DNA of 64,000 bases from Candidatus Limnocylindrales bacterium (GCA_035526025.1 DATLDE010000005.1:32192-96191); one strand, 5' to 3'; positions 9,176 through 60,661 are shown, numbered from the stretch's first letter. Notes: generated by a model from the letters alone, not told the origin. Numbers and translations: made by a program.

Positions 9176-9522
9176 ATGTTTTCTAAAAAAAATATTCAGG
9201 ACATTCCATTAGAAGAAACATCTCACTCATCTGGAACACGCAAGATGATTGTCGGAAAAGAAGAAACCTCTTCTGAGTATTTTGAAGCATACACCTATGG
9301 TTATTTACCGTCTGGGAAAAATGGGATATGCATGAACGTGAAAATGTTGTAGAAATTTGTTTTGTAACTAAAGGGAAGGGTGTTGTTCGGAATTCCAATG
9401 GTACAGAAGAAAGTTTTGTAACTGGTGATAGGTTTATTTTCCCACCTAATACAGGGCATGAGATTGAAAATAATTCAAATACTGATGCAGAATTCTATTT
9501 TATAAGATTTAAAGATAAATAA
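9176..9522 (+). pseudogene. small cupin-domain protein split by a +/-1 frameshift at an A5 run (9317-9321); pseudogene or homopolymer sequencing error
   Basis: Frame A (9176-9352) ends ...EYFEAYTYGYLPSGKNGICMNVKML*. Frame B (open from 9286, track ORF 9328-9522) reads ...HERENVVEICFVTKGKGVV...GDRFIFPPNTGHEIEN...EFYFIRF. Joined, they give a G(x)5HxH(x)3-4E(x)6G cupin motif 1 plus motif 2. Confidence 0.5.
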
Positions 9523-12196: not shown

Positions 12197-13437
12197 TTTT
12201 TAACTTTCAGTATTTTAAATGTGCGATTAGTGTAATAAATTATAAAAGGTATGGCTATAATGGATCCCAAAAGAGCAGATATCCCTGCACCGAATAACTG
12301 ATATGACATTATAAATGGAACTATTGAAAGTATAAGTCCAAGAATATTTACCAATGTAATTACACTTGTATATTCTTGTTTTTTCATTGAGATAAATAGA
12401 GCAGTTGATGATAAAGAAACAGACTTTACAAAACCAAGGACGGCCAAAATCGGCAATACGCTTGCAATCCCTGACCACCTTTCACCAAGAATTGTTACGA
12501 AAAAACCGGGAAAAGATGCGAAAATAAAAGCAAATGGCAATGTAATTACAGAAATACACAGCACTGTTTTAAAATAAGCTGATTTCAAACGACTAGAATC
12601 GCCTGAAATCTTAATAAATATCGGAACTGTTACATGAACAAATACCCTACCTACCTCAATCAAGGGTGCCGCGGACAAAGAATATGCAAGTTGATAGATA
12701 CCCAAGAATTTTGCACCCAACAATCTTCCAACCATTATGTTATCTGCGTTGTGAAACAAATAATCAAATATACTGCTAGCTGTTATCCACTTTCCTCTGT
12801 TAAAAATCCTAACAATGTATTTTCTTTCAAAAACAAATGATGGCCGAGGAGTTACAACAATGAAAGATAGAATTAACTCCATAAATACCCCCGCAATGAG
12901 TCCAATTATAATTCCACTTGGATTTTTAGTTAAGTATGTAATTATAATAGAGATTACCGTATCGACAATTATCACTGAAAATCTATATAAAAAGTCTTTA
13001 GAAAACTTCAACTCTTTTTGTAATTTGACAATTGCAGGATTTATCATACCCCTCAAAAGCGGCACAATACTTATCATTTGTAAGAGCCCTAATGACTCCG
13101 GGGAATTAAAAAATGCTGATATAAATGGAGCGCTTGCTAAGATTAGCAAAAATATTACAATGCCTCTAAAAATTGAGACCACCCAAGCAGAATTAATATT
13201 GCGATCAATATCATCTTCTTGAATTAAGACTATATTTACGCCACTCTCTGTAATTACTTCTAATAGCCCTAAGGCCAATAATGCAATTCCATATGCTCCA
13301 AATTGCTCAGGAACCAAAATTCGCGCAAGAATAATTGCTTCAATAAATCCAAATCCTTTGGTTGCAACACGTAAAATTCCAAACCAGGATATTCCTTTTA
13401 TTGCGTCTTTTTTATAACCCATATTTAAATATACCAA
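12193..13437 (-). CDS. Wzx-type oligosaccharide/polysaccharide flippase (MOP superfamily)
   Basis: 414 aa with about 12 TM helices. The N-terminal KGISWFGILRVATKGFGFIEAIILARIL...GAYGIALLALGLLEVITESGVNIVLIQ is typical of polysaccharide biosynthesis protein/Wzx. Confidence 0.75.
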   Translation of the reverse strand: MVYLNMGYKKDAIKGISWFGILRVATKGFGFIEAIILARILVPEQFGAYGIALLALGLLEVITESGVNIVLIQEDDIDRNINSAWVVSIFRGIVIFLLILASAPFISAFFNSPESLGLLQMISIVPLLRGMINPAIVKLQKELKFSKDFLYRFSVIIVDTVISIIITYLTKNPSGIIIGLIAGVFMELILSFIVVTPRPSFVFERKYIVRIFNRGKWITASSIFDYLFHNADNIMVGRLLGAKFLGIYQLAYSLSAAPLIEVGRVFVHVTVPIFIKISGDSSRLKSAYFKTVLCISVITLPFAFIFASFPGFFVTILGERWSGIASVLPILAVLGFVKSVSLSSTALFISMKKQEYTSVITLVNILGLILSIVPFIMSYQLFGAGISALLGSIIAIPFIIYYTNRTFKILKVKK

Positions 13438-14350
13438 TTATCGTACCCAGTACCACTGCAAGATCAGATACTATCTGTAAAACAGGCAATATAATTATCG
13501 CTTTCAAGTCTTTTACATATTTATAGTTCTTCTCGATTGCCCAAATAAAATAAAAAAAAACTAGTAATGCTAAAGTAACTGAGAGCACATAGCTATCTCT
13601 TATTATAGCGAAATACAGCAATAAAATCCCCAAAATGTATCTAATAAAGATTATACCTACCTTAGGTCTAAAAGCCTTAGACTCTGCGTCACCTAATGAA
13701 AATCGATAAAACATATAAGATGCTTCTCTTAAATTTCTCCTGGGAATCCAATAAACAAAAGCTTGCTTACAAAATGCAATTGAGTAATTCATGTTTTTTA
13801 ATTTTCTTGCAAAAACATAGTCTTCATTATGAGAAAATTCTTCTGGAAATCCTCCTGACTTTTCCCACACACTTTTCCTAAATGCCATAGAGCGACTAGC
13901 AGGTAAAAAATTATCTGGATTTACTTTATCAGGCATGACAAGCACATAAGGCACCAGACATTTCTGGAAAATATTATTTGACGATCCTTTATAATACCCC
14001 GCCACAACATCCGTAGCGTTATTTTTAAAAGGTTTGACTATCTCCTCAATCCAATATTTATCCAATATGCACCCTGCATCTGAACAAACTATTATATCCC
14101 CTGTAGAATTCTTGATAGCTTTATTTCTACCTACAGACCTATTTCCAGGTTTGACTATTACTAAAAACTTTCCATTGTAGTCTTTGCTCTTTACTCTTTG
14201 ATCTTTGATCTTCTCAACAGTCTGGTCGCTACTTCCCCCATCAACAATTATTATCTCATCCGGCATTCTAGACTGAGCAAGTAATGATTCGAGTAGCTTA
14301 TTGATGGTTTTTTCTTCATTAAATACAGTTGTAATAAATGTTACATTCAT
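13412..14350 (-). CDS. family 2 glycosyltransferase with C-terminal membrane anchor
   Basis: The GT2 N-terminus MNVTFITTVFNEEKTINKLLESLLAQ...IIIVDGGSSDQT...VCSDAGC is followed by 2-3 C-terminal TM helices. The start was moved to ATG 14350, which overlaps the upstream gene's stop. The track start at 14410 is 20 codons upstream. Confidence 0.75.
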   Translation of the reverse strand: MNVTFITTVFNEEKTINKLLESLLAQSRMPDEIIIVDGGSSDQTVEKIKDQRVKSKDYNGKFLVIVKPGNRSVGRNKAIKNSTGDIIVCSDAGCILDKYWIEEIVKPFKNNATDVVAGYYKGSSNNIFQKCLVPYVLVMPDKVNPDNFLPASRSMAFRKSVWEKSGGFPEEFSHNEDYVFARKLKNMNYSIAFCKQAFVYWIPRRNLREASYMFYRFSLGDAESKAFRPKVGIIFIRYILGILLLYFAIIRDSYVLSVTLALLVFFYFIWAIEKNYKYVKDLKAIIILPVLQIVSDLAVVLGTIIGIFKYGL

Positions 14351-15393
14351 ATTTTCCAAAGTTCTAAATATGTTTTTGTTACTTTTTCCCATGTTTGATC
14401 TTTTGCCCATAAATATCCATTATTTACCATAGCTTCACTTTTCCAGGGATTATCAAGTACCGATTTTATGACATCATATATTTCACTTGCATCTTTACAG
14501 ATATATACAAAATTAGCAAACGGAGAATTTCGTAGATAATCTTCTTTCAATTTATTTTCATATACTGATATGACAATTTTTTTATGAATCAGCGCTTCTA
14601 GCATTAACAGATAAGATGAACAAAATACGATATCTGCGAATTCAATCGCTTCTGTTGAATCACTTACAAATTCTTTTACCTCGCCATATTTTTCAATTCG
14701 CGATGCTAAAGGCCCTTCTCCATAAGATTTGAAGTCAAAAGGTATTTTATTCTTCTTAAGTAAGTCTAATGATTTTAAATATGACATAATCCCCAAATCT
14801 TTTTCCAATCTTCCAATAAAAGTAATGGTTAAATTTGATTTCTGATTTTTGATTTCGCGTTCTGAGCCTGTCGAATGGAATGATTTTTGATTTTTTACTA
14901 AATTCACTCCTCCATATATTACAAAATTGGGTTTTGTATGATACCATTTTTTAATATATTCACCAACGCAAATATTTCCAGATGATAAATGCTCGCTGAT
15001 TTTTCTAATAATTATTGCTTTTTTATCAGGTGGAAACTTGGTCTCATGCCCATGAAACGTGGTAAAAACTTTTTTTGAAGGATTTATGATTTTAAATGGA
15101 AGATACCAGAAGAATACATCATGGCAATGAATTACGTCAGCATTTTTTAGTAATTTTTTAATCTCAAATAATTTTCTCCAAATTCTAAATTTTTTAAACC
15201 AATTATTTTCTCCAGAAACTATTCTCTTAACTGAAATGCCATCAATCTCTTTTGATTTTTCATTATTGTTTCCCTCTGCTATTACTGTGACTTTGTGACC
15301 GAGTTTTATTAAGTTTTTTCCTACCATTAATGCGTGTTTTTCAACTCCGCCAATTTGTGGACAGAATCTACGTGTAAAAAATATAATATTCAT
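14347..15393 (-). CDS. GT-B fold glycosyltransferase (GT4/GT1-like)
   Basis: 348 aa. N-terminal MNIIFFTRRFCPQIGGVEKHALMVGKNLIKLGHKVTVIA is typical of GT4 N-terminal domains. The C-terminal half is Rossmann-like. Confidence 0.7.
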   Translation of the reverse strand: MNIIFFTRRFCPQIGGVEKHALMVGKNLIKLGHKVTVIAEGNNNEKSKEIDGISVKRIVSGENNWFKKFRIWRKLFEIKKLLKNADVIHCHDVFFWYLPFKIINPSKKVFTTFHGHETKFPPDKKAIIIRKISEHLSSGNICVGEYIKKWYHTKPNFVIYGGVNLVKNQKSFHSTGSEREIKNQKSNLTITFIGRLEKDLGIMSYLKSLDLLKKNKIPFDFKSYGEGPLASRIEKYGEVKEFVSDSTEAIEFADIVFCSSYLLMLEALIHKKIVISVYENKLKEDYLRNSPFANFVYICKDASEIYDVIKSVLDNPWKSEAMVNNGYLWAKDQTWEKVTKTYLELWKI

Positions 15394-16143: not shown

Positions 16144-16250
16144 ATATAGGAATATGCTAGTATGCCCACAACAATTATATACATAATACGAATTAAAATA
16201 AACATGCTTATTAGTTGAATTGTTACCATCAAAAATAGTACAATTAGCGT

Positions 16251-17021
16251 GTGAAGGTATCTGTTGTCATTCCGGTCCACAATGAAGAAACATATATAGC
16301 CACATGTCTGGAAAGCCTACTAGATCAAACTGAACCTGCTGATGAAATTATTGTCGTTGACAACAATTCAACAGACAACACTGTAAAAATAATAAAAAAA
16401 TATCCCGTTAAACTTTTAAGGGAAAAAAGGCAGGGAACCACGATGGCACGCAATAAGGGCTTTGATAAGGCAATGCATGAGATAATCGCTCGAACAGACG
16501 GGGATACTATGCTCCCTCCAAACTGGATTAAACAAATCAAGCAAAAATTTGCAGATAAAAGCTTGGTAGGAATTTCCGGACCTGCTGAGTTTTATGATCT
16601 TCCGGAAATCATACAGAACTCACGTTGGCAATCCCAACCTGCCTGGCTCAAGCTAATTAAGACATATAACAAAGTTGTAAGGAAATTGCTTAAGCATGAT
16701 TGCTTGTATGGACCAAACTTTGCCATTCGTAAAAAAGGATGGGAACAAGTAAGATTATCCGTATGCACAGATGACAGTAAAGTCCATGAGGACATTGATT
16801 TGGCAATTCACCTTGCGCCATTTGGAAAAATTAAATTTTTTCATAGCCTTGTAGTAAAAACATCGGTGAGAAGATGGAAAAAGCCTGATGCATATATTGA
16901 ATATTTATATAGAGGGTTAAAATCAATAAGTAATCACAAAAAGATAGGCACTAAGGAAAGAAGCAAGCAACTTATGAAAAAAATGGTATCAAAAGCCTCC
17001 TTACTAATCAATTACAATTAA
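16251..17021 (+). CDS. family 2 glycosyltransferase
   Basis: MKVSVVIPVHNEETYIATCLESLLDQ...IIVVDNNSTDNT...TDGD. The start codon is GTG. Divergent from the 15415-16143 gene. Confidence 0.75.
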   Translation: MKVSVVIPVHNEETYIATCLESLLDQTEPADEIIVVDNNSTDNTVKIIKKYPVKLLREKRQGTTMARNKGFDKAMHEIIARTDGDTMLPPNWIKQIKQKFADKSLVGISGPAEFYDLPEIIQNSRWQSQPAWLKLIKTYNKVVRKLLKHDCLYGPNFAIRKKGWEQVRLSVCTDDSKVHEDIDLAIHLAPFGKIKFFHSLVVKTSVRRWKKPDAYIEYLYRGLKSISNHKKIGTKERSKQLMKKMVSKASLLINYN

Positions 17022-17038
17022 ATTATAATAAGTACTAT

Positions 17039-17785
17039 ATGAACAATCCCCCTCTTATATCATATATAGTCCCAGCGAGAAATGAGGAGGAATTCATAGG
17101 CAACTGTATAGCATCTCTCAAAAAGCAAGAGTTAGAGGATAACTTTGAAATCTTAGTTGTAGATAATGCATCGAATGACAATACAGCAATGGTCGCTACA
17201 CAATTAGGTGCAAGAGTTATCAAAGAGAAAACACCAGGGTTGTCGTATACAAGGTCAAAAGGACTTAACAGCGCAAATGGAGAGATAATTATTTTTGTAG
17301 ATGCTGATACAATTCTCCCGAAAAATTGGTCTAAAACAGTTGTAGGCTATATAAAAAAGAGTAAAAATGTCGTTGCAGTATCATGTGGATTTGTTTTTCA
17401 TGATGGGAGATTTTATGAAAATCTTGGGTGTTATTTTATTTTATTAATAAATCCTATATATAACATCACTCTTCAGCTTTTTGGTAAACCTAATCTTCTC
17501 CTAGGACAATCTTTCGCAATAAAAAAATCCGCTCTTGTTCATGCAGGGGGTGTGAATATGGATTTTCCATTTTATGCAGAAGACATTGCTATGGCAAAAA
17601 GGCTAAGCTCAGAAGGTGAAGTAAGATACCTATACTCGATTTTGGCACGTTCAAGCGCTAGGCGTTTTCATAAAATTGGTTTTTTTAGAACACTTTATTT
17701 ATACATGACCCCTATGATTCTTTTGATGCTAGGAAAGTACGACCGCGCAAAAAATTTTGCATCCAAGCACGATTACACTAAATAG
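17039..17785 (+). CDS. family 2 glycosyltransferase (DPM1/ArnC-like)
   Basis: ISYIVPARNEEEFIGNCIASLKKQ...ILVVDNASNDNT...VDADT. Confidence 0.75.
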   Translation: MNNPPLISYIVPARNEEEFIGNCIASLKKQELEDNFEILVVDNASNDNTAMVATQLGARVIKEKTPGLSYTRSKGLNSANGEIIIFVDADTILPKNWSKTVVGYIKKSKNVVAVSCGFVFHDGRFYENLGCYFILLINPIYNITLQLFGKPNLLLGQSFAIKKSALVHAGGVNMDFPFYAEDIAMAKRLSSEGEVRYLYSILARSSARRFHKIGFFRTLYLYMTPMILLMLGKYDRAKNFASKHDYTK

Positions 17786-29367: not shown

Positions 29368-30435
29368 CTAATCTGACTGCTTGGCGATGTTGAGAAGAAT
29401 TCCAACTGAGGCGAGGTTGAGAATAAGAGCCGAACCACCGTATGAAATAAAAGGAAGCGGCACTCCTGTTAGCGGCAGAAGAGCTGTCATTGCTCCCAGA
29501 TTAATAACTATCTGTATCCCTATAAAAGTGATGATTCCGGCTGCTAAGAGCTTTCCGAATGAATCTCGGCAATTTGCGGAAATCTTAAATCCACAATAAA
29601 TCAAAAATGCGAAAACAATGATAAGTGCTGTTGCACCAACAAATCCAAATTCTTCAGCAATTATGGGAAATATTGAGTCAGTCACATTTTCAGGAAGATA
29701 TGCGTATTTTTGGAGCGAATTTCCGATACCCAGACCCCATATTCCCCCAGATCCCAGCGCTATAAGAATTTGTTTTGTATGATATGAGGTATCTCGGAAA
29801 GAATTCCCAAGATTTAAAAAACTTGTAAGCCTACTCATCCTATATGGTTCAGCTTTTATCAATAAAAACCCCACAAATGCTGCTACCGGAGCACCGAGTA
29901 TAAAATGAAACATATTGCCTCCTGAAAAAAAGTACATTGCAACAGCTTCAAATAAAATAATAGACGCTGTTCCCATATCAGGCTGAAGCATTACCAATAG
30001 AATAACAGACCCAAGTAGCAGTGAAAACGCTAAAAATCTATTTTTTTCTTTTGTTGAAAACCACGCTGCAAGATATATAGCAAGAGCAAGTTTAACAAAT
30101 TCTGATGGCTGAAGCCTAAACCCAAAAATATTTATCCATCTCGCTGCACCCTTTGCTGAAGAACCCGCTCCGGGAATAAAAACCAATATCAGAAGAACTA
30201 ATGACACAATTAATAGGGGCAATGCTAAATTAAACAACTTTTTATAGTCAAAAAAATAAAAAAATGCTAGTCCTATGTATCCCAAAATAATCCAGAGGAC
30301 TTGATCTTTAAAATATCCATATTTGTCTCCGAACAATTCATACGCAATAACTGATGATGAATTGAAGATCATAAGAAGACCAAAAAAAGTAAGTGCGGTA
30401 ACAGTTCCCGCGAGCAGTATGTCGAACCGTTTCAT
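29368..30435 (-). CDS. ftsW: SEDS-family lipid II flippase/peptidoglycan polymerase FtsW
   Basis: SEDS motifs (ARWINIFGFRLQPSEFVKLAL; DSIFPIIAEEFGFVGA) in the dcw position between mraY and murG. The start was moved to ATG 30435 (MKRFDILLAG), which abuts the mraY stop. The track start at 30519 would overlap mraY by 85 nt. Confidence 0.85.
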   Translation of the reverse strand: MKRFDILLAGTVTALTFFGLLMIFNSSSVIAYELFGDKYGYFKDQVLWIILGYIGLAFFYFFDYKKLFNLALPLLIVSLVLLILVFIPGAGSSAKGAARWINIFGFRLQPSEFVKLALAIYLAAWFSTKEKNRFLAFSLLLGSVILLVMLQPDMGTASIILFEAVAMYFFSGGNMFHFILGAPVAAFVGFLLIKAEPYRMSRLTSFLNLGNSFRDTSYHTKQILIALGSGGIWGLGIGNSLQKYAYLPENVTDSIFPIIAEEFGFVGATALIIVFAFLIYCGFKISANCRDSFGKLLAAGIITFIGIQIVINLGAMTALLPLTGVPLPFISYGGSALILNLASVGILLNIAKQSD

Positions 30436-31439
30436 TAGATATTTGAAATGAAGATACCAAGAATAGCTAGAAAAAATCCAATTAGCCAAAGACGCATGAC
30501 GATTTTTGGCTCTTCCCAACCTCTTTGCTGAAGGTACAAATGCATAGGCGCTGCTGGTAAAATCCTACGCCCCAGATACTTCTTTCCCAACAGCTGTATA
30601 AGAGAAAAGCTAACTTCAACAACAAATATACCACCAATTATAATAAGTGCCAGAACTTTGCCGGTTAAAAGACCAGTGACAGCCAGAACCGCCCCGAGAG
30701 ATAGAGATCCTACGTCGCCAAGCCAAAGACGCGCTTTGTAAATATTAAAATATAAAAATGCGGTCAAAGTTCCTATCAAAACTGCGAGAAAAATTCCAAG
30801 TGATTCGTCAAGTGCTGCAGAATTAATAACTAAAAATGCCACAAGACATATCAGGAGAAGTCCTGAAGCTAGACCATCAAGCCCATCCGTAATATTAAAG
30901 GCGTTTACAAATGCCACAATAACAAACGCTGCAAAAGGTATGAATACAGCCCCTAAAAATAGTTTTCCTATTCCATGAATATAAACAAAATCATAATGAA
31001 GCTGTATATAAAATATAAAAGCTATTATAAACGCGAGTACCCACTGGATGATAATCTTGTGGCGAAATCTTAATCCAAACCAATTATTATTTGCTCCCAC
31101 CAACTTTTTAATATCATCATATAATCCCAATAATCCAAAACTAATAAATGCAAAGAACAAAACAAAAATTTCCCAAGGCAACACTTTTGTGTTAAAAATG
31201 CCGTAGGCCCAAAACGTACATATAGTTACAACTAATATTATGAGAATTCCTCCACCGAATGGAGTACCGACTTTCCATGAATTGAATTTATCAAAAAGAG
31301 GAGTTCTCTTATTGAACATATCTCGTGTTGCTTGGTGTGCTCTTCGTAATTTTATGCGATAAAGAAAGTCAATAAAAGGCACGATAAGTATGGCCGTTAC
31401 AAAAAATGAGGATATGATTAGCCCGAGTAGTCGCTCCAT
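30435..31439 (-). CDS. mraY: phospho-N-acetylmuramoyl-pentapeptide transferase MraY
   Basis: 334 aa with about 10 TM helices. Has MraY motifs (NAFNITDGLDGLA; PAAPMHLYLQQRGW). Confidence 0.9.
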   Translation of the reverse strand: MERLLGLIISSFFVTAILIVPFIDFLYRIKLRRAHQATRDMFNKRTPLFDKFNSWKVGTPFGGGILIILVVTICTFWAYGIFNTKVLPWEIFVLFFAFISFGLLGLYDDIKKLVGANNNWFGLRFRHKIIIQWVLAFIIAFIFYIQLHYDFVYIHGIGKLFLGAVFIPFAAFVIVAFVNAFNITDGLDGLASGLLLICLVAFLVINSAALDESLGIFLAVLIGTLTAFLYFNIYKARLWLGDVGSLSLGAVLAVTGLLTGKVLALIIIGGIFVVEVSFSLIQLLGKKYLGRRILPAAPMHLYLQQRGWEEPKIVMRLWLIGFFLAILGIFISNI

Positions 31440-31468
31440 GTAGATTAATTATAGCCATTTATTTTTAG

Positions 31469-43109: not shown

Positions 43110-44030
43110 TCAAGCCGCATTTAAGCTCAATTCGGTGATTATACCATTTGCAAATTCCCGATTTGGTGCTACCACAACTGGAACATTAATCCCATGTTGA
43201 GCAAATGATTTATATTTTCTAGTACCCAAACTCGTACCATCAGCAACGACCATTACTCCTCCAAGTTCCATTACCAGACCGTAAGTTGGTGCCATCTCCA
43301 AATTTCCCATTAGAGACACATTCCCTTTTCTAGTTACCTCCAACTGCGCATCTATGGCTTCATTAATAAAAAGTGCAGTTCTGGCAGCCTGAGAACGGTA
43401 CGCACATTGCATTAGAGGAAATCTAGTTTTATTCTCAGGATTTTCAAATACATTACTTAGTATTGGCCAATTTATATCAAGATCTATAATGCTTTCCTCA
43501 GATAGCTCTCCAGTTTGCTTTCTTTCAAGCCGAACAGGTTCCCCCGTTTCAATATCAACCTTAAAACATCCTTCTCCCTTTACAGCAAGTAATAATTCTG
43601 GCTTTGGTGAATGAATCATAATTCCAGATACTAAATAATCATCGTATGTAGGATCATCTCCTTCCAAAACGCTAACCATTGTCCCATACATTGAATCCCC
43701 ACGCTTTTCCCTATATTCTCCCGACCCGTCCAGACCGTCCAGAATTACTGTATGCTCTGGTTCATTTCCATATGTAACTGTACCATGTTCTTCTGAGAAA
43801 ACCTGCAAAGGAATTTTTAATATTTTTAAAGAATCAAGTACTACTTCTTCTGCTTTTACATCCATGACCAAAGCAGTCTCTCCAAATTGATTTTGCTGGA
43901 AATTAGCTTTCCCTCCATCTCCTAAGCTTTCGTGTAAATAGTAGGTTTTTTTAATCCATCAATCACCGCAGCAGCAAAATCTTCTTTTGTTGGGGGAAAT
44001 TCACGCTCTCTGGGTTGCTCAGGAATCATT
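43110..44030 (-). pseudogene. inositol monophosphatase/FBPase-family (FIG superfamily) gene, apparently frameshifted at a T7/A7 homopolymer (43946-43952); pseudogene or assembly indel
   Basis: Downstream frame (track ORF 43110-43871, TTG start): VMDVKAEEVVLDSLK...FSEEHG...VILDGLDGSGEY (the DPxDGT-like motif)...MELGGVMVVADGTSLG. The same frame stays open and homologous (ESLGDGGKANFQQNQFGETAL) up to a stop at 43959-61. A second frame begins at ATG 44030, overlaps the glyQS stop as TAATG and ends at 43922. Adding one A to the A7 run would fuse the two frames. Confidence 0.55.
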
Positions 44031-45508
44031 TATGATAGCTTTTTCTTAAAATAAGAATCTAATTCTTTTATTGCTAAACGCTCCTGCTTGGTTGTATCGC
44101 GATCACGAACTGTGACGGTATCATCCTCAAGAGTCTGGAAATCAACAGTTATGCACCATGGAGTTCCGATCTCATCCTGTGCCAGATATCTCTTTCCTAT
44201 ATTTCCCCGGTCATCAAATGCAACCATAAAGTCGTTTTTCAGACTATCATATAAACCTTTTGCTTTATCAATTAGCTCAGGCTTATTCCCAAGAAGCGGA
44301 AAAACAGCAACTTTATACGGAGCAAGACGCGGATTGATTTTTAATACTGTTCTTTTCTCTTCCTCAACATATCCATCAGCAAGCACCATAAGAAGCAGCC
44401 TATTTATACCAACAGCTGGCTCTATAACATGTGGGACTAGTTTCTTTCCAGTCTGGGGATCAGTAATAACAAGCTCCTTATTTGAAGCTTTATTATGTTG
44501 AGTCAAATCATAATCGGTTCTATATGCAAGTCCCCAAAGCTCTTTAAACCCAAATGGAAATTTGTATTCCATGTCTTCAGTTCGCATACTATAGAATGAA
44601 CGCTCCTCGTCTTTATGTTCACGCCACCTGAGATTTTCCTTATCAATTCCCAATTTTTCTGTGGCAAATTCCCACATATTTTTCTTCCAATTCTCAAAAA
44701 GCTCTTTCCAGTCTGATTTCTCAGGGTCGAAGAAATACTCAATTTCTCCTTGCTCAAACTCTATAGTTCTAAATATGGAGTTCCCAGGTGTTATTTCATT
44801 TCGGAAGCTCTTACCAAGCTGCGCAATACCAAACGGTAGACTCACCCGGGTTGAGTCTATAACATTTTTAAAGTTGGTGAATATAAGCTGTGCTGTTTCA
44901 CCTCTAAGATATCCCATTCCCTGATCCCCTTCTACAATTCCTAACTGGACGGGAAATAATAAATTAAACTTTCGGACTTTAGTCCAATTATTGTCTTTTT
45001 TTGGTGTTGCTTTGCATTTGGGACATGGGATATTATGCTGACGGATGATAGAATCAAACTGCTTCTCACTCAGTCCTTCAACTTTTTTTGTTGATACATA
45101 CTCATTAATAATATCCTTACCCAAACCTTCTTCTATAAAATCTGCTCTGTCTGCATAACCAATTAGACCCTTATGATTTGATTCTATAAAGTCCTCAACG
45201 AGGTGATCAGCTCTCATGCGGGCTTTGCATTTTTTGCAATCAACCATCGCATCGGCAAACCCTGCGACGTGTCCTGAAGCCTCCCATATTTTGTGGTGAG
45301 AGATGATACTCCCATCAAGTCCAACCATATCTGATCTTTTTTGAACAAAATACTCCCACCAGAGATTTTTGATATTCCTGAGAAGCTCAGTGCCTGCAGG
45401 ACCATAATCGTAGGTATTGGCAAGGCCACCGTAGATCTCGCTCCCCGGATAAATAAATCCGCGTCTTTTAGCAAGAGATACAATTTTTTCCATGGTTTTT
45501 TCAGTCAT
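44030..45508 (-). CDS. glyQS: glycyl-tRNA synthetase, dimeric class II (GlyQS)
   Basis: 492 aa. The N-terminal IVSLAKRRGFIYPGSEIYGGLANTYDYGPAG and class II motifs are typical of alpha2 GlyRS. Confidence 0.9.
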   Translation of the reverse strand: MTEKTMEKIVSLAKRRGFIYPGSEIYGGLANTYDYGPAGTELLRNIKNLWWEYFVQKRSDMVGLDGSIISHHKIWEASGHVAGFADAMVDCKKCKARMRADHLVEDFIESNHKGLIGYADRADFIEEGLGKDIINEYVSTKKVEGLSEKQFDSIIRQHNIPCPKCKATPKKDNNWTKVRKFNLLFPVQLGIVEGDQGMGYLRGETAQLIFTNFKNVIDSTRVSLPFGIAQLGKSFRNEITPGNSIFRTIEFEQGEIEYFFDPEKSDWKELFENWKKNMWEFATEKLGIDKENLRWREHKDEERSFYSMRTEDMEYKFPFGFKELWGLAYRTDYDLTQHNKASNKELVITDPQTGKKLVPHVIEPAVGINRLLLMVLADGYVEEEKRTVLKINPRLAPYKVAVFPLLGNKPELIDKAKGLYDSLKNDFMVAFDDRGNIGKRYLAQDEIGTPWCITVDFQTLEDDTVTVRDRDTTKQERLAIKELDSYFKKKLS

Positions 45509-50237: not shown

Positions 50238-51341
50238 TCAAATCAATTTATTCACAACTGACAAGAAATTTTTTTTAAAACTTTCAAAATTAAATCTTTC
50301 TGAGTTAATTATGCATTCATTAGGTCTGAACTTTATTTTTTCAAATCTCACGATCGATTCCATCAAAGACTCCTTATTCTGCTCATCAAAAAACAATCCC
50401 GTACTGCCGTCAATTACTATTTCGCGGGCTCCTCCTTTTTTAAAAGCAATTACTGGCTTGCCATGCATTCCTGCCTCTACCATAACAAGCCCAAAATCTT
50501 CTACTCCAGGAAATATCAACGCTTTACAATTTTTGTAATAATCAATAAGGTCAGCATCATTTATTGCTCCGATAAATTCTACACTAGAACCCGCTATTTT
50601 TTCAAGATCATTTTTCCAGCTCCCTTCTCCTACAATTTTTAAATTAAATTTAAGTTCATTAGCAGCTTCAATGACGAGATCAATTCGCTTATACTTTGTG
50701 AATTTTGAAAGCCTTGAAACCACAAGAAAATAATTTTCCTGATTCCTGATTCTTACCTGCCTGCCTGATTGGAGGGATTCTTGATTCTTTTTTAGAATTG
50801 CCGGTGGATAAACTAACTGCGATTCTCTTCCATAATATTTCTTAATTCTCCTCTGCACCTCTTTGGATATTCCGATATATGCATCAGGCCTTGAAGAGGC
50901 TATGATATCCCATTTTTGAAGCCTTGAAATAATCGGTTTTGACAAAATTTTTAGAAAATCAGTCTGAAAGTAATCATCATACCCACTCCATAAATATCTT
51001 GTAGGCGTGAGACAATAGCAAATGTGGATTGTCCCTGGTTTGGTAATTATTCCTTTTGCTGATTCTGAAGTAACTGAAATGACTAGATCATATTTATCAA
51101 AAACAAGGCTTTCAAACACCAATGGCATCAAAGGCGAAACAAATTCATGGTTTGAGGATGCGAATGGTATTTTCTGGAGAAAGGAAGTTCTAACATCAAA
51201 TACTTTAGCCCATTTTGCTGTATTTTTTTCATAGACCGAAGTATAAAGAGGTGCATCTGGAAATAACTTATGAAAAGCAAGAAGCACTCGCTCAGCACCA
51301 CCCCATTTATTAACTCTATCGTAAACTAATGCTACTTTCAT
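50238..51341 (-). CDS. family 4 glycosyltransferase (GT-B)
   Basis: MKVALVYDRVNKWGGAERV... is a GT4 N-terminal domain, and the C-terminal domain has GVEDFGLVMVEAGMHGKPVIA (the EX7E region). The ORF stays open to 51398, but the GT domain starts at 51341. Confidence 0.75.
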   Translation of the reverse strand: MKVALVYDRVNKWGGAERVLLAFHKLFPDAPLYTSVYEKNTAKWAKVFDVRTSFLQKIPFASSNHEFVSPLMPLVFESLVFDKYDLVISVTSESAKGIITKPGTIHICYCLTPTRYLWSGYDDYFQTDFLKILSKPIISRLQKWDIIASSRPDAYIGISKEVQRRIKKYYGRESQLVYPPAILKKNQESLQSGRQVRIRNQENYFLVVSRLSKFTKYKRIDLVIEAANELKFNLKIVGEGSWKNDLEKIAGSSVEFIGAINDADLIDYYKNCKALIFPGVEDFGLVMVEAGMHGKPVIAFKKGGAREIVIDGSTGLFFDEQNKESLMESIVRFEKIKFRPNECIINSERFNFESFKKNFLSVVNKLI

Positions 51342-52428
51342 ATACAGCCAGTGTCTCTTTTGCCATTTTTCTCCAGGAAAATTCTTTTGAGCGCTCAAGT
51401 CCTTTCTTTATATTTTTATCAAGTATATTTTGCTCAAGACTAAAAACATCGTTTATTTTGTTCTTTATATCCTCAATAGAATATGGATCAAAATATATTG
51501 CAGCATCTAGACAAACTTCTCGCAGCGAAGGAATGTCAGACGCAATAACCTGACATGCTGATGCCATAGCCTCAAGCACCGGTAACCCAAAACCTTCCAT
51601 GAGAGACGGAGATATAAGTGCAATTGCGTTTTGATAATAACCAGCGAGTTCTTTGTCAGTGACATTATTCCGGACTACAACTCCTGAGTAATTTTCTTTT
51701 AAGATTTTCTCATTTAATTTTTTATAAAAAAAATCATCCTTTCCAACCAGCACCAATTGTATGTTTTCATGGTCTTCCTTTCTGAATAAAGAAAAGGCTT
51801 TTATTAATCTGTCAAGATTTTTGTGTGGATATGCATTCCCAACATATAAAAAATATTTTGTTTTATCAACAATTTGTACTTTATCTTTTTTTTGTATTTT
51901 TTCATCAAATCCTTCATAAGTGACAATAATTTTTTCTTGCTTAACTCCCAGGGTTTCTATCAAGTCGTCTTTCACGGCATTCAGCGGTACTATGATTTTT
52001 TGGGCTTTATTAACTGCATTCTTAACCACATAATCATATCCAAGTTTCTTGAGTTGATATAAATACAAAGGAAGCTTTGAGGCTTTACCTGTTGGGAAAT
52101 GATTTATGATCAAATCGTGAATCGTGATGACAAATGGATTTTTATATCCAACAGGAATAGAGAAATATGGAAAATGAACCAAATCCAAATTCTCTTTATT
52201 CAAAATTTGAGGAAGTTTTAACTGCTCATCAAGCGTATGCCAACGAATGTCCACCCGGACAACTTTGAACTTTGAACTTTGAACTTTGAACTTGTCAGCA
52301 TCTGCAGACCTCATAAACAAAACATAATCATTTGTTTTGTCAATTTCGGCTAAATTGTAAACCAAATTCCTGATATACCTCCCAACTCCTGTCTCGCTCC
52401 AAAGCCGCGCGTCAATACCAATTTTCAT
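51316..52428 (-). CDS. family 4 glycosyltransferase (GT-B) containing an in-frame heptanucleotide repeat tract
   Basis: MKIGIDARLWSETGVGRYIRNL... is a GT4 N-terminus, and the C-terminal has PSLMEGFGLPVLEAMA. Four perfect AACTTTG units encode KFKVQSSKFKV near the N-terminus. Confidence 0.8.
   Translation of the reverse strand: MKIGIDARLWSETGVGRYIRNLVYNLAEIDKTNDYVLFMRSADADKFKVQSSKFKVVRVDIRWHTLDEQLKLPQILNKENLDLVHFPYFSIPVGYKNPFVITIHDLIINHFPTGKASKLPLYLYQLKKLGYDYVVKNAVNKAQKIIVPLNAVKDDLIETLGVKQEKIIVTYEGFDEKIQKKDKVQIVDKTKYFLYVGNAYPHKNLDRLIKAFSLFRKEDHENIQLVLVGKDDFFYKKLNEKILKENYSGVVVRNNVTDKELAGYYQNAIALISPSLMEGFGLPVLEAMASACQVIASDIPSLREVCLDAAIYFDPYSIEDIKNKINDVFSLEQNILDKNIKKGLERSKEFSWRKMAKETLAVYESSISLR
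52261..52294. repeat. heptanucleotide microsatellite (AACTTTG)x4 plus one imperfect unit, inside GT4 coding sequence
   Basis: aactttg at 52261-67, 52268-74, 52275-81 and 52282-88, then aacttg. Confidence 0.85.
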
Positions 52429-52449
52429 AAAATAAGTATAACATAGTGG

Positions 52450-53364
52450 CTAAGTAGTGTTTCTTTTGTGAAGAAAACTTATTCCACATTCAACTATCCA
52501 ATTTATAATTTTAGGATATTTTCCTGAATAGTTTTTTTTATAAAAAATCCTCATCGCTTCAAATCGATGTCCTTGCATGATCCTTCTTCGCTCCTTGTCT
52601 GCTGTTGATATGTGATGCGATTGTTTTTTAATACCACTTGATACTCCGCCATAATGAAGAATGCTTACGTCTGGGATATAATAAATTTTAAACCCGAGTT
52701 TTTTAATATCATAACAAAATTGCAAATCCTCGCCATAGAAAAAGTATTCTTCATCCCACCATCCAATTTTTTCACCAACATCCCGACGGACCAACAAAAA
52801 CGCACCAGAAATTGCATCAACCTCGTGAATTGTATTAATGTTTTTAAATCCTTGTATATACCCACTGAACAATTTAGACTTTGAAAACACTTTTTCAAGT
52901 TTTGAAAAATGCGAGAGCGCATTCCATGGAGTAGGAAATCCACGATGCGATGAGTCATCGATTCCGCCTGTAGGTAACACCACCTTACAAGTTGCGGCCC
53001 CAGCATCTTTATGTTCATCCATAAACTCTATCATTCGTGAAAGTGTATTTGGGTATACAATCGTATCCGGATTGAGAAACAATATATACCGCCCATGTGC
53101 ATTTTTAAGAGCATTGTTGTTACCTTTTGCAAAACCGATGTTTCCTCCATTATCTTCAACTAAGAACGTTTTAATTTTTGTCTTATTAGCATAATCTTTA
53201 AATGATTTCAGAGAATCATCAGGTGATGCGTTATCAGCTACAATTACTTCAAAATTTCCTGACTTTACATCTTCTGGATAATTTTTTTCAATAGATGCAA
53301 TAGCGTCAAGCGTCAACTGCTTTGTATTATAATTTAAGATAATTATTGAAAGATCCACGACCAT
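52450..53364 (-). CDS. family 2 glycosyltransferase
   Basis: LSIIILNYNTKQLTLDAIASI...VIVADNASPDDS...FLNPDT. Confidence 0.8.
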   Translation of the reverse strand: MVVDLSIIILNYNTKQLTLDAIASIEKNYPEDVKSGNFEVIVADNASPDDSLKSFKDYANKTKIKTFLVEDNGGNIGFAKGNNNALKNAHGRYILFLNPDTIVYPNTLSRMIEFMDEHKDAGAATCKVVLPTGGIDDSSHRGFPTPWNALSHFSKLEKVFSKSKLFSGYIQGFKNINTIHEVDAISGAFLLVRRDVGEKIGWWDEEYFFYGEDLQFCYDIKKLGFKIYYIPDVSILHYGGVSSGIKKQSHHISTADKERRRIMQGHRFEAMRIFYKKNYSGKYPKIINWIVECGISFLHKRNTT

Positions 53365-59184: not shown

Positions 59185-60063
59185 TTAAAATTGAATTGCC
59201 TGTCTAAATGTTGTCGTAAGATACTTATTTCTTGTAATATAACCAATTGTGATTGCTACATATGCCTTAACGTATAACATTGCCTTCACAAGGATATATT
59301 CCATATTACTTCTGTGCTTTTTATAAAAATAAAGAAGCCCTTTGTAGATATTTGCTACTGCGAAACTTCGGCTTGAACTTCCCTGATCCTGGTGGATTAC
59401 TGAAACATCAGGATAGAAAAATGTTCTAAATCCAGCTTTTTTTGCACGATAACAAAGTTCCATATCTTCTATATACATAAATATTTTTTCATCAAAACCC
59501 GATAATTTATCAAAGACATCTTTTCTCATCATGAACATCGCACCTTTTACCCAATCTACTTCGGTAACTTTATTAAAACTTTTATCAATCAATCCAAACT
59601 TTTGCATACCTAATAGAAGTAAAAAAGTATTGAACAATGTATAAAATTTTCCCGCTGATGATTGCTTCTCCCCATTAACATTAGTTAGCTGTCCCCCGAG
59701 AATTGATACATCTATATTTTTATCCATGTACTCTACCATTCTAACTATTCCTTTATCCATAACAGTTGTATCATTATTGAGAAACAACAGATATTTTCCT
59801 TTTGCTTCTTTTGCTCCGATATTACAACCTTTTGCAAATCCTTCATTTTTCTTATTATTTATAACTTTTATATTTTTAATACTATCTTTTGCTATTTTAA
59901 TGTTTATAAAATCTAATGAGTCATCTTCAGATCCATTTTCAACAATTATCAGCTCAAATTTGTTTTTTTCAAAATCGTCATTATATAACTTATATAGTGA
60001 GTCAATACAATTAATCGTCAGATGAGATTTTTTATAATTAATACTTATTATTGAAAGCATCAT
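59185..60063 (-). CDS. family 2 glycosyltransferase
   Basis: MMLSIISINYKKSHLTINCIDSL...LIIVENGSEDDS...FLNNDT. Confidence 0.75.
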   Translation of the reverse strand: MMLSIISINYKKSHLTINCIDSLYKLYNDDFEKNKFELIIVENGSEDDSLDFINIKIAKDSIKNIKVINNKKNEGFAKGCNIGAKEAKGKYLLFLNNDTTVMDKGIVRMVEYMDKNIDVSILGGQLTNVNGEKQSSAGKFYTLFNTFLLLLGMQKFGLIDKSFNKVTEVDWVKGAMFMMRKDVFDKLSGFDEKIFMYIEDMELCYRAKKAGFRTFFYPDVSVIHQDQGSSSRSFAVANIYKGLLYFYKKHRSNMEYILVKAMLYVKAYVAITIGYITRNKYLTTTFRQAIQF

Positions 60064-60067
60064 AAAA

Positions 60068-60661
60068 CTATCGGAACCATGCAGCGCGACCAAGCTTATA
60101 ATTCAATTCTTTTAACACTCTTTCTTTTATTATTTTAGCTGGAACTCCACCAACCATTTCAAATTCTTTAACGTCTTTTGTCACCACTGACCCTGCTGCA
60201 ATAACCGCACCTTTTCCGATATTCACACCTGGAAGTATGATGGATCGTGGTCCGATAAAGACATAGTCTCCAATACGCACAGGTGCATTTATCCCTCCAA
60301 AATGCGGATCTTCAATATCATGTTGGGAATTATATATCATCACATCCGACGCAATATCGACATGATTTCCAATACTTAGCTTGTCTCTTCCATCCAGAAC
60401 TATTCCTTCTCCGATAATTGTTCCATTCCCAATCGTTATATTCCTTGGGTTATAAAAACGTGCGCCCATGTGAATTGCGGACCCTGACCCAATTTGAACA
60501 CCTGCCAATCTATAAAAAAACCTCCTGATAATATGTGAAGGGAAATGCCCCACTATATGAAGTAAAAGAACTATCAGTTCCCACATGGTAGTATTTGCTC
60601 TATTTACGCTTTTATCCAACACCTCGTGCGTTGAAAGTTCTTTTCCGGTTTTGTCTATCAT
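60068..60661 (-). CDS. left-handed beta-helix (hexapeptide-repeat) sugar O-acetyltransferase with N-terminal TM segment
   Basis: IGEGIVLDGRDKLSIGNHVDIASDVMI...IGPRSIILPGVNIGKGAVIAAGSVVTKDV contains LbH hexapeptide repeats. Confidence 0.75.
   Translation of the reverse strand: MIDKTGKELSTHEVLDKSVNRANTTMWELIVLLLHIVGHFPSHIIRRFFYRLAGVQIGSGSAIHMGARFYNPRNITIGNGTIIGEGIVLDGRDKLSIGNHVDIASDVMIYNSQHDIEDPHFGGINAPVRIGDYVFIGPRSIILPGVNIGKGAVIAAGSVVTKDVKEFEMVGGVPAKIIKERVLKELNYKLGRAAWFR

Follow-up and report, generated by a model that had tools for sequence, protein, structure and literature searches.

A gene of the FBPase/IMPase superfamily next to glyQS is interrupted where a homopolymer run lacks a single A

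Introduction

Two groups of phosphatases are the closest described relatives of the protein considered here. The class I FBPases (pig liver, 1EYI/2F3D; E. coli Fbp, 2GQ1) are its best Foldseek matches, and the archaeal FBPase/IMPase enzymes (MJ0109, 1DK4; AF2372, 1LBV/6B64; PH1897, 1VDW) are its best matches at the sequence level. The gene for this protein contains a frameshift at a homopolymer, and two kinds of described system bear on such a site. One is the programmed -1 ribosomal frameshifting of the dnaX/IS3 type, with which the locus shares an in-phase A_AAA_AAN heptamer and a -1 shift into a conserved downstream frame. The other comprises the poly(A) frameshifts of Buchnera and Blochmannia and the G7 'savior' indel of the herpesvirus thymidine kinase gene, where a homopolymer indel likewise interrupts a gene that is otherwise intact. 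Low-level slippage may yield some full-length product from frameshifted homopolymer genes, and the bacterial cases of productive transcriptional slippage on record involve runs of about 9 (PMC5009743). Heptamers that lack stimulators operate in E. coli at 2–10 times the background of 0.055% (PMC4066793).

Layout of the locus

The window is the whole 64,000-nt stretch of DNA that was analyzed. The features that matter here are the phosphatase gene, its neighbor glyQS, and a second gene with a similar lesion.

43110..44029, minus strand: whole ancestral phosphatase gene, 306 aa if the run is A8 (Pfam, orthologs, AlphaFold2, Foldseek)
43922..44029, minus strand: phosphatase 5' fragment, ATG 44029, 35 codons, TAG 43924-43922 (ORF and ortholog match)
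43946..43952, no strand assigned: lesion, A7 on the coding strand and T7 on the plus strand (ortholog DNA alignment, frame switch)
43110..43958, minus strand: phosphatase 3' fragment in the -1 frame, stop TGA 43112-43110 (ORF and ortholog match)
44030..45508, minus strand: glyQS (glycine-tRNA ligase, 492 aa), TAA 44032-44030 (Pfam, tblastn)
9176..9522, plus strand: cupin gene split at the A5 run 9317-9321, 115 aa with one added A (protein search)

The T7 run of the plus strand (43946-43952) is flanked by G and A. Translation from ATG 44029-44027 gives a 35-codon ORF, MIPEQPREREFPPTKEDFAAAVIDGLKKPTIYTKA; codons 1–28 are homologous to ortholog residues 1–28 and codons 29–35 (PTIYTKA) are out-of-frame. 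The main (-1) frame is closed upstream by TGA 43959-43961, exactly where a preliminary description of this DNA had placed a stop. The first possible start in this frame is TTG 43871, which gives a 253-aa protein, and the frame extends 5' of this TTG as WIKKTYYLHESLGDGGKANFQQNQFGETAL. The source public record holds HUQ85013.1 (locus tag VM077_01705); its CDS (P0001) begins at ATG 43865, is 251 aa long, and is labeled hypothetical protein.

Adding one A to the A7 run fuses both fragments into a single 306-aa ORF. The run reads TTA AAA AAA CC as found and TTA AAA AAA ACC (A8) when repaired, and the junction peptide TYYLHESLGDGGK would require a change to the -1 frame. The preliminary description had proposed a gene split by a 1-nt change of frame in the T7 run and a fusion product of about 306 aa, and both proposals agree with the sequence. 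The locus holds one gene of the FBPase/IMPase superfamily, whose reading frame is lost where an A run is short of a single A.

The junction between glyQS and the phosphatase gene reads TCA TAA ATG. The glyQS stop (TAA 44032-44030) abuts the phosphatase start (ATG 44029-44027) with a 0-nt spacer. The preliminary description had the second frame opening at the glyQS stop through a TAATG overlap with an ATG at 44030. The start does follow directly after glyQS, but the overlap does not exist: the sequence is TAAATG, stop and start are adjacent, and the ATG is at 44029. The same TAA|ATG arrangement with a 0-nt spacer is found in the window and in L001–L005, which represent three ortholog lineages. 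This arrangement suggests translational coupling between glyQS and the phosphatase gene. That ATG 44029 has no Shine-Dalgarno sequence in front of it was rejected as proof of coupling because most window genes lack one.

Orthologs are uninterrupted at the lesion site

The repaired 306-aa protein was searched against 5.8 billion proteins. The family is rare, with 29 matches at E ≤ 0.001, and its members are often annotated as hypothetical protein. The search returned the annotated 251-aa protein at 100% identity and 82% coverage. The intact matches of the repaired protein are 298–314 aa long, and the closest three (P0002–P0004, 306–309 aa) are 66–67% identical and cover 99–100% of the repaired query.

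The two fragments match consecutive parts of the same ortholog. The 35-aa ORF matches residues 1–28 of P0004 (19/28 identical, 68%; E = 9e-11), and this match ends exactly at the run, at the run's two lysines. For the part of the main frame 5' of its first start, the match is to P0004 residues 28–54 (18/27 identical, 67%; E = 2e-11), as expected from the earlier claim that homology continues 5' of the TTG start. Because both pairwise matches meet at the A run, the frame switch is pinned to it (codons 27–28). The N-terminal ~55 residues are present in 21 of 21 full-length aligned relatives, all of them single ORFs. In the alignment these 55 residues are as conserved as the rest of the protein and include the near-invariant positions L26, H33, G37, G40, N47, G50, and L54.

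Orthologous loci carry the gene as a single ORF, the comparison that the preliminary description had recommended. Uninterrupted ORFs of 306–309 aa are present in L001, a 159-kb JGI contig that carries P0004, and in two further lineages, L004 (Logan, P0003) and L005 (ENA, P0002). L001 and the window share one gene order: DUF4012, recO, a small ORF, glyQS, the phosphatase gene, a gene for a 165-aa protein, mraZ, and rsmH. The window GlyRS is 82% identical to L004 and 57% identical to L001 by tblastn, and the syntenic ortholog glyQS is matched by the Pfam HGTP_anticodon and GlyRS insertion domains. Farther afield, glyQS is absent beside the phosphatase gene in the 25 more distant loci (L006–L030), which are mostly labeled Patescibacteria or DPANN archaea.

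At the lesion site the three ortholog lineages read TTG CTA AAA ACG (L001/L002/L003), TTG GTA AAA ACT (L004), and TTG AAA AGA GCT (L005). In the DNA alignment with these orthologs, the window has a gap of one base within the run (TTA AAA AAA -CC). Because the orthologs are uninterrupted and the window has a single-base gap, the ancestral state is one ORF and the window is short one base of an A8 run.

The phosphatase family and its fold

The fused 306-aa form scores 27.7 bits against Pfam PF00459 (Inositol_P), a marginal pass of the cutoff of 27, and the annotated 253-aa form scores 24.9 bits, below the cutoff. The alignment of the frames to IMPase/FBPase models, suggested in the preliminary description, thus separates the two forms. 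The phosphatase does not reach the cutoff of PF00316 (FBPase; 21 bits versus 34.8), and most of its homologs have precomputed matches to PF00459 and/or PF00316. The best NCBIfam match is PRK12676, bifunctional FBPase/IMPase (4.8e-11), and class 1 FBPase is also matched. These scores lie below the curated equivalog cutoffs (PRK12676, 42.2 bits versus 264; FBPase models, ≤26 bits versus 349–576). By its sequence, the putative phosphatase is a member of a divergent clade outside every named equivalog.

The AlphaFold2 model of the repaired protein, computed with the family alignment, has a pLDDT of 92.3 and a pTM of 0.91. A single helix (residues 15–41) crosses the junction at residue 28. Foldseek assigns the FBPase and IMPase folds at a probability of 1.0. 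Its top matches are class I FBPases (E = 1.6e-15, TM 0.69), and archaeal IMPase/FBPase enzymes and histidinol-phosphate phosphatase (HPP) are matched at a TM of 0.83 by target. The AlphaFold2 model and the Foldseek matches together identify the layered α/β sandwich fold of FBPase/IMPase. A split gene encoding two polypeptides that assemble was considered and rejected: ancestral residues 29–55 (43958-43872) contain no ATG, GTG, or TTG start in their own frame, and the break falls inside a helix.

The motifs S79-E80-E81-H82 and D98-G-L-D101-G102-S103 are invariant in 23 family members, with Gly in place of the usual Pro, and N243/E245 are also among the invariant residues of the family alignment. 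In the family profile SEEH and DGLDGS align with the metal-binding motifs of 1VDW, 1DK4, and 2GQ1. Residues 33–125 align with E. coli Fbp residues 45–133, and within this region residues 33–55 (H33, G37, G40, N47, G50, L54) align with E. coli FBPase from residue 45. This alignment puts residues 36–55 against the loop of class I FBPase that is mobile and serves catalysis. The motifs and the modeled fold indicate that the ancestral product was probably a metal-dependent sugar-phosphate phosphatase with the FBPase/IMPase fold.

The protein differs from both groups of described enzymes. Class I FBPase aligns with the protein at the LG.sG..N..GE...D region, at the EE pair, and at the D.LDGS metal motif, and we take the C-terminal GNLE..P....E.GG to resemble the FBPase YE..P....E.AGG motif. 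However, the phosphatase is only 14–16% identical to class I FBPase, is ~30 residues shorter, scores 26 bits against an NCBIfam cutoff of 477, has DGLDGS in place of DPLDGS, and shows no evidence of the AMP allosteric site. The archaeal FBPase/IMPase enzymes are matched by profile over nearly the full length (1VDW, 4.4e-10; 1DK4, 6.2e-08) with a target-normalized TM of up to 0.83–0.84. In contrast to these enzymes, the phosphatase has a longer N-terminal helix and insertions (306 aa versus about 252), and the WD.AAG motif is missing.

Relatives in the phosphatase family come from DPANN archaea and Patescibacteria. Family members in the genome collection are from almost exclusively Patescibacteria-like and DPANN-like MAGs. 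Separately from the frameshift, the family could be a candidate for an unrecognized FBPase of these reduced Patescibacteria/DPANN-like genomes.

A truncated copy of the phosphatase gene is present in L025 (L025:3989-4335; CAZCNP010000003.1, a 159-kb contig). Residues 4–88 of this frameshifted remnant are in one frame and residues 88–115 in a second one. The frame changes at CTGGGAAAAATCC, and beyond the end of the remnant lies an ORF of 266 aa that is unrelated to it. The phosphatase family has evidently been lost in some lineages.

A cupin gene carries the same kind of lesion

The preliminary description noted the same problem in the cupin gene at 9176-9522, and one A is indeed missing there. 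With one more A in the A5 run at 9317-9321 (GGGAAAAATGGG), the two ORFs at 9176-9352 and 9328-9522 become one. A single alignment of the repaired cupin (115 aa) with P0030 (116 aa) covers residues 1–113 at 64% identity, and both proteins read SGKKWDMH across the junction. Pfam scores are 40.6 bits for the fused form and 39.8 for the 3' ORF, and it is the exhaustive protein search that shows the frameshift. A second relative, P0031 (119 aa), is 71% identical to the repaired cupin over residues 1–82 and then diverges. Beyond residue 82 it reads EIGLFSRQTQ where the repaired cupin reads GDRFIFPPNT, an out-of-frame-like difference, and its sequence may represent a second, independent frameshift in the cupin family.

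Origin of the frameshift

The repaired phosphatase gene shows no sign of damage apart from the missing base. The mean identity to the outgroup is 48.7% for the repaired protein and 47.2–48.6% for the intact orthologs. In the family alignment the repaired protein has zero private changes at invariant columns and one private change at columns that are at least 85% conserved, the same as the intact orthologs. No further decay, relaxed constraint, or extra stop was found in the repaired gene. Because the repaired gene is otherwise undamaged and its divergence is not faster, the lesion is either very recent or a consensus error.

Long A/T runs elsewhere in the window lie in intact genes. About 60–64 intact genes contain 98 A/T runs of at least 7 that are in frame (75 A/T7, 21 A/T8, and 2 A/T9), and because these runs are in frame the assembly is judged good at homopolymers. 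Both lesions are located in accessory genes and 0 in core genes (ATP synthase, the cell-wall/division cluster, glyQS, recO), which fill most of the window and hold most of its A/T runs. Decayed copies exist elsewhere for both families, the L025 remnant for the phosphatase and P0031 for the cupin. Two broken genes in ~66 are in line with the usual pseudogene share of bacterial genomes. The 251-aa product is flagged as present in Logan re-assemblies of public read sets. The pattern of A7 or A8 plus 32 flanking bases found no same-species contig in genome_contigs or metagenome_contigs, and exact-product look-ups of P0001, the window GlyRS, and the downstream 166-aa protein put no second assembly on record. 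Since no same-species contig was found, A7 is supported only by one record and the unverified Logan flag.

The explanation that we favor, with modest confidence, is a real and recent loss-of-function allele, either a young pseudogene or an allele that is still segregating. One A would have been lost from the A8 tract by a slipped-strand replication error in the sampled population. The gene hit would be a dispensable accessory gene, with a lesion that is very young or an allele that segregates. Ribosomes starting at ATG 44029 would read 28 native codons, continue out of frame for 7 more, and terminate at TAG 43922-43924. Translation is predicted to yield only this 35-aa peptide and, perhaps, a protein of 251/253 aa made from an internal start. 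This protein would begin at residue 54–56 and is probably inactive because helix 1 and the stretch aligned with the mobile loop are missing. A trace of full-length protein could arise by unprogrammed -1 slippage on A_AAA_AAA or by RNA polymerase stuttering.

The alternatives concern either the state of the DNA or the use that is made of it. An assembly or sequencing artefact is possible, if rather doubtful: the organism would have A8 in the phosphatase gene and A6 in the cupin gene, both genes would be intact, and the consensus would have under-called two homopolymers. Both lesions consist of one base too few in an A run, which is how an under-called homopolymer classically looks, and the repaired genes are otherwise perfect, with neither extra stops nor excess substitutions; the absence of secondary decay is equally expected from an assembly error. 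Failure at 1 of ~22 A8 runs and 1 of ~175 A6 runs would be a low, length-dependent error such as occurs in a polished long-read assembly. Against this, the 98 other coding A/T runs of 7–9 are in frame, both A/T9 runs included, which leaves room only for a low error rate. With 5–6 A's an error would be surprising, since accurate platforms seldom produce consensus errors at runs of this length; the lesions are in accessory genes and spare the run-rich core genes; and Logan, whose k-mer assembly depends on accurate reads, flags the truncated product. MAG TPA records with such locus tags may belong to the soil catalogue of Illumina/MEGAHIT assemblies in PMC10640626, and if this is the source, a minority error path would not win an assembly-graph bubble. 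The preliminary description had put an assembly indel first among its options. On this circumstantial evidence (the runs, the A5/A6 site, and the accessory genes), a real mutation is at least as likely as an artefact. A third view of the DNA is that the A tract is a contingency locus, reversibly on (A8) or off (A7) within the population. Slipped-strand mispairing between A7 and A8 is reversible in principle, and the lesion is clean in a gene that is otherwise intact. Such a switch is nevertheless very unlikely, as the A tract is unconserved in orthologs, 21 other coding A/T8 runs in the window make the tract nothing special, and a cytoplasmic metabolic enzyme is unlike the surface or restriction-type functions that are typical of contingency loci.

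The remaining alternatives take A7 as functional. A7 could be the working state of the gene, with -1 ribosomal frameshifting on A_AAA_AAA or transcriptional slippage fixing the amount of full-length enzyme and so limiting expression as in dnaX or IS3 elements; we regard this as very unlikely. There is a similarly slim chance that A7 is genuine and maintained and that recoding throttles a metabolic enzyme after glyQS-coupled translation in a small-genome bacterium. If this were true, -1 slippage on A_AAA_AAA or polymerase stuttering would supply a small and constant quantity of the full-length FBPase-like enzyme, and to our knowledge no such case is described in this lineage. A programmed frameshift was among the options listed in the preliminary description, but the orthologs are uninterrupted and have no slippery heptamer, and the window shows no stimulatory RNA structure 3' of the run. 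The attraction of recoding is that A_AAA_AAA is in the X_XXY_YYZ phase of ATG 44029 (TT[A AAA AAA] CCT), a -1 shift leads into the conserved frame, a partly Shine-Dalgarno-like GGTGAT lies 9 nt 5' of the run, and the phosphatase gene shows no decay. The phase of the heptamer is automatic when one A is lost from TTA AAA AAA ACC, however, and hence it is not independent evidence. Heptamer and frameshift are conserved in none of the three ortholog lineages, and GGTGAT is not conserved in orthologs. Most window genes lack a Shine-Dalgarno sequence, which makes it less likely that GGTGAT acts as a stimulator. The downstream 86 nt fold at -15.8 kcal/mol versus a shuffle mean of -15.1 (z = -0.25), and 71 of 200 shuffles fold at least as well. 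The levels of stimulator-less heptamers in E. coli and the slippage runs of ~9 nt also count against recoding at A7, and the lesion site of the cupin gene has no X_XXY_YYZ heptamer. Compared with dnaX/IS3, the locus lacks a downstream hairpin or pseudoknot, its heptamer and frameshift are unconserved in orthologs, and its unshifted product is a useless 35-aa peptide rather than a second functional protein. Compared with rescue of the Buchnera/Blochmannia type, the tract is A7 where the reviewed bacterial cases are ~9 or more, and the phosphatase frameshift shows no sign of upkeep across relatives. At most a trace of adventitious rescue is expected, not a designed recoding site. The annotated 251/253-aa ORF could instead be a true, shorter functional enzyme with the upstream similarity as a leftover. 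This ORF has TTG and ATG starts, GGAGAG is located 6 nt 5' of TTG 43871, and the public record annotates the gene in this way. The likelihood of a short enzyme is minimal: all 21 full-length relatives carry the N-terminal ~55 residues with their near-invariant positions, the 24.9 bits of the short form fail the Pfam cutoff of 27 that the fused form passes, helix 15–41 is an integral and confidently modeled part of the structure, and GGAGAG is dictated by the conserved FGE codons.

The lesion is a commonplace frameshift at a homopolymer, in an accessory gene that relatives conserve, and recoding is without evidence. The 251-aa hypothetical protein is a frameshifted copy of a 306-aa phosphatase with a predicted FBPase/IMPase fold, which matters for annotation and for metabolic reconstruction. 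Annotation should mark it as either a frameshifted pseudogene or a possible sequencing error, and it should count as a working enzyme only if the reads bear this out.

Other features of the window

Every other gene examined in the window is intact. A mechanical search for open frames that overlap and contain homopolymers produced 16 candidates, of which the large ones at 16248-17785 and 29368-31448 are adjacent intact genes. Apparent gaps in the gene map at 6.3–7.1, 13.4–14.3, 30.5–31.5, 51.4–52.4, and 59.2–60.1 kb are occupied by atpG, mraY, and three glycosyltransferase genes, all intact. An Rfam search of the window returned a tRNA-Thr as its sole match.

The G+C content of the window is 35.5%, and metagenome contigs are its nearest relatives. 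The record is named Candidatus Limnocylindrales bacterium, and this organism label, or the binning of the 280-kb contig, looks doubtful.

A Shine-Dalgarno core of even 4 nt is present at about 11 of 64 window genes. Many starts are preceded by a TATAAT-like box ~5–12 nt upstream (GGCTATAATTAATCTAC ATG, TGGTATAATTAATAATCTTT ATG, CTGCTATAATTAGTTT ATG). Start regions that served as examples in this Shine-Dalgarno/TATAAT survey are at 31439, 19879, 54611, and 29333. The pattern suggests leaderless or very short-leader mRNAs in the window organism.

Glycosyltransferase genes are unusually dense in the window (13412-14410, 14347-15393, 16251-17785, 50238-53364, and 59185-60093) and are interleaved with the cell-wall/division cluster and the ATP synthase operon. 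Several of the glycosyltransferase predictions overlap by 60–90 nt, and these probably have over-extended start codons.
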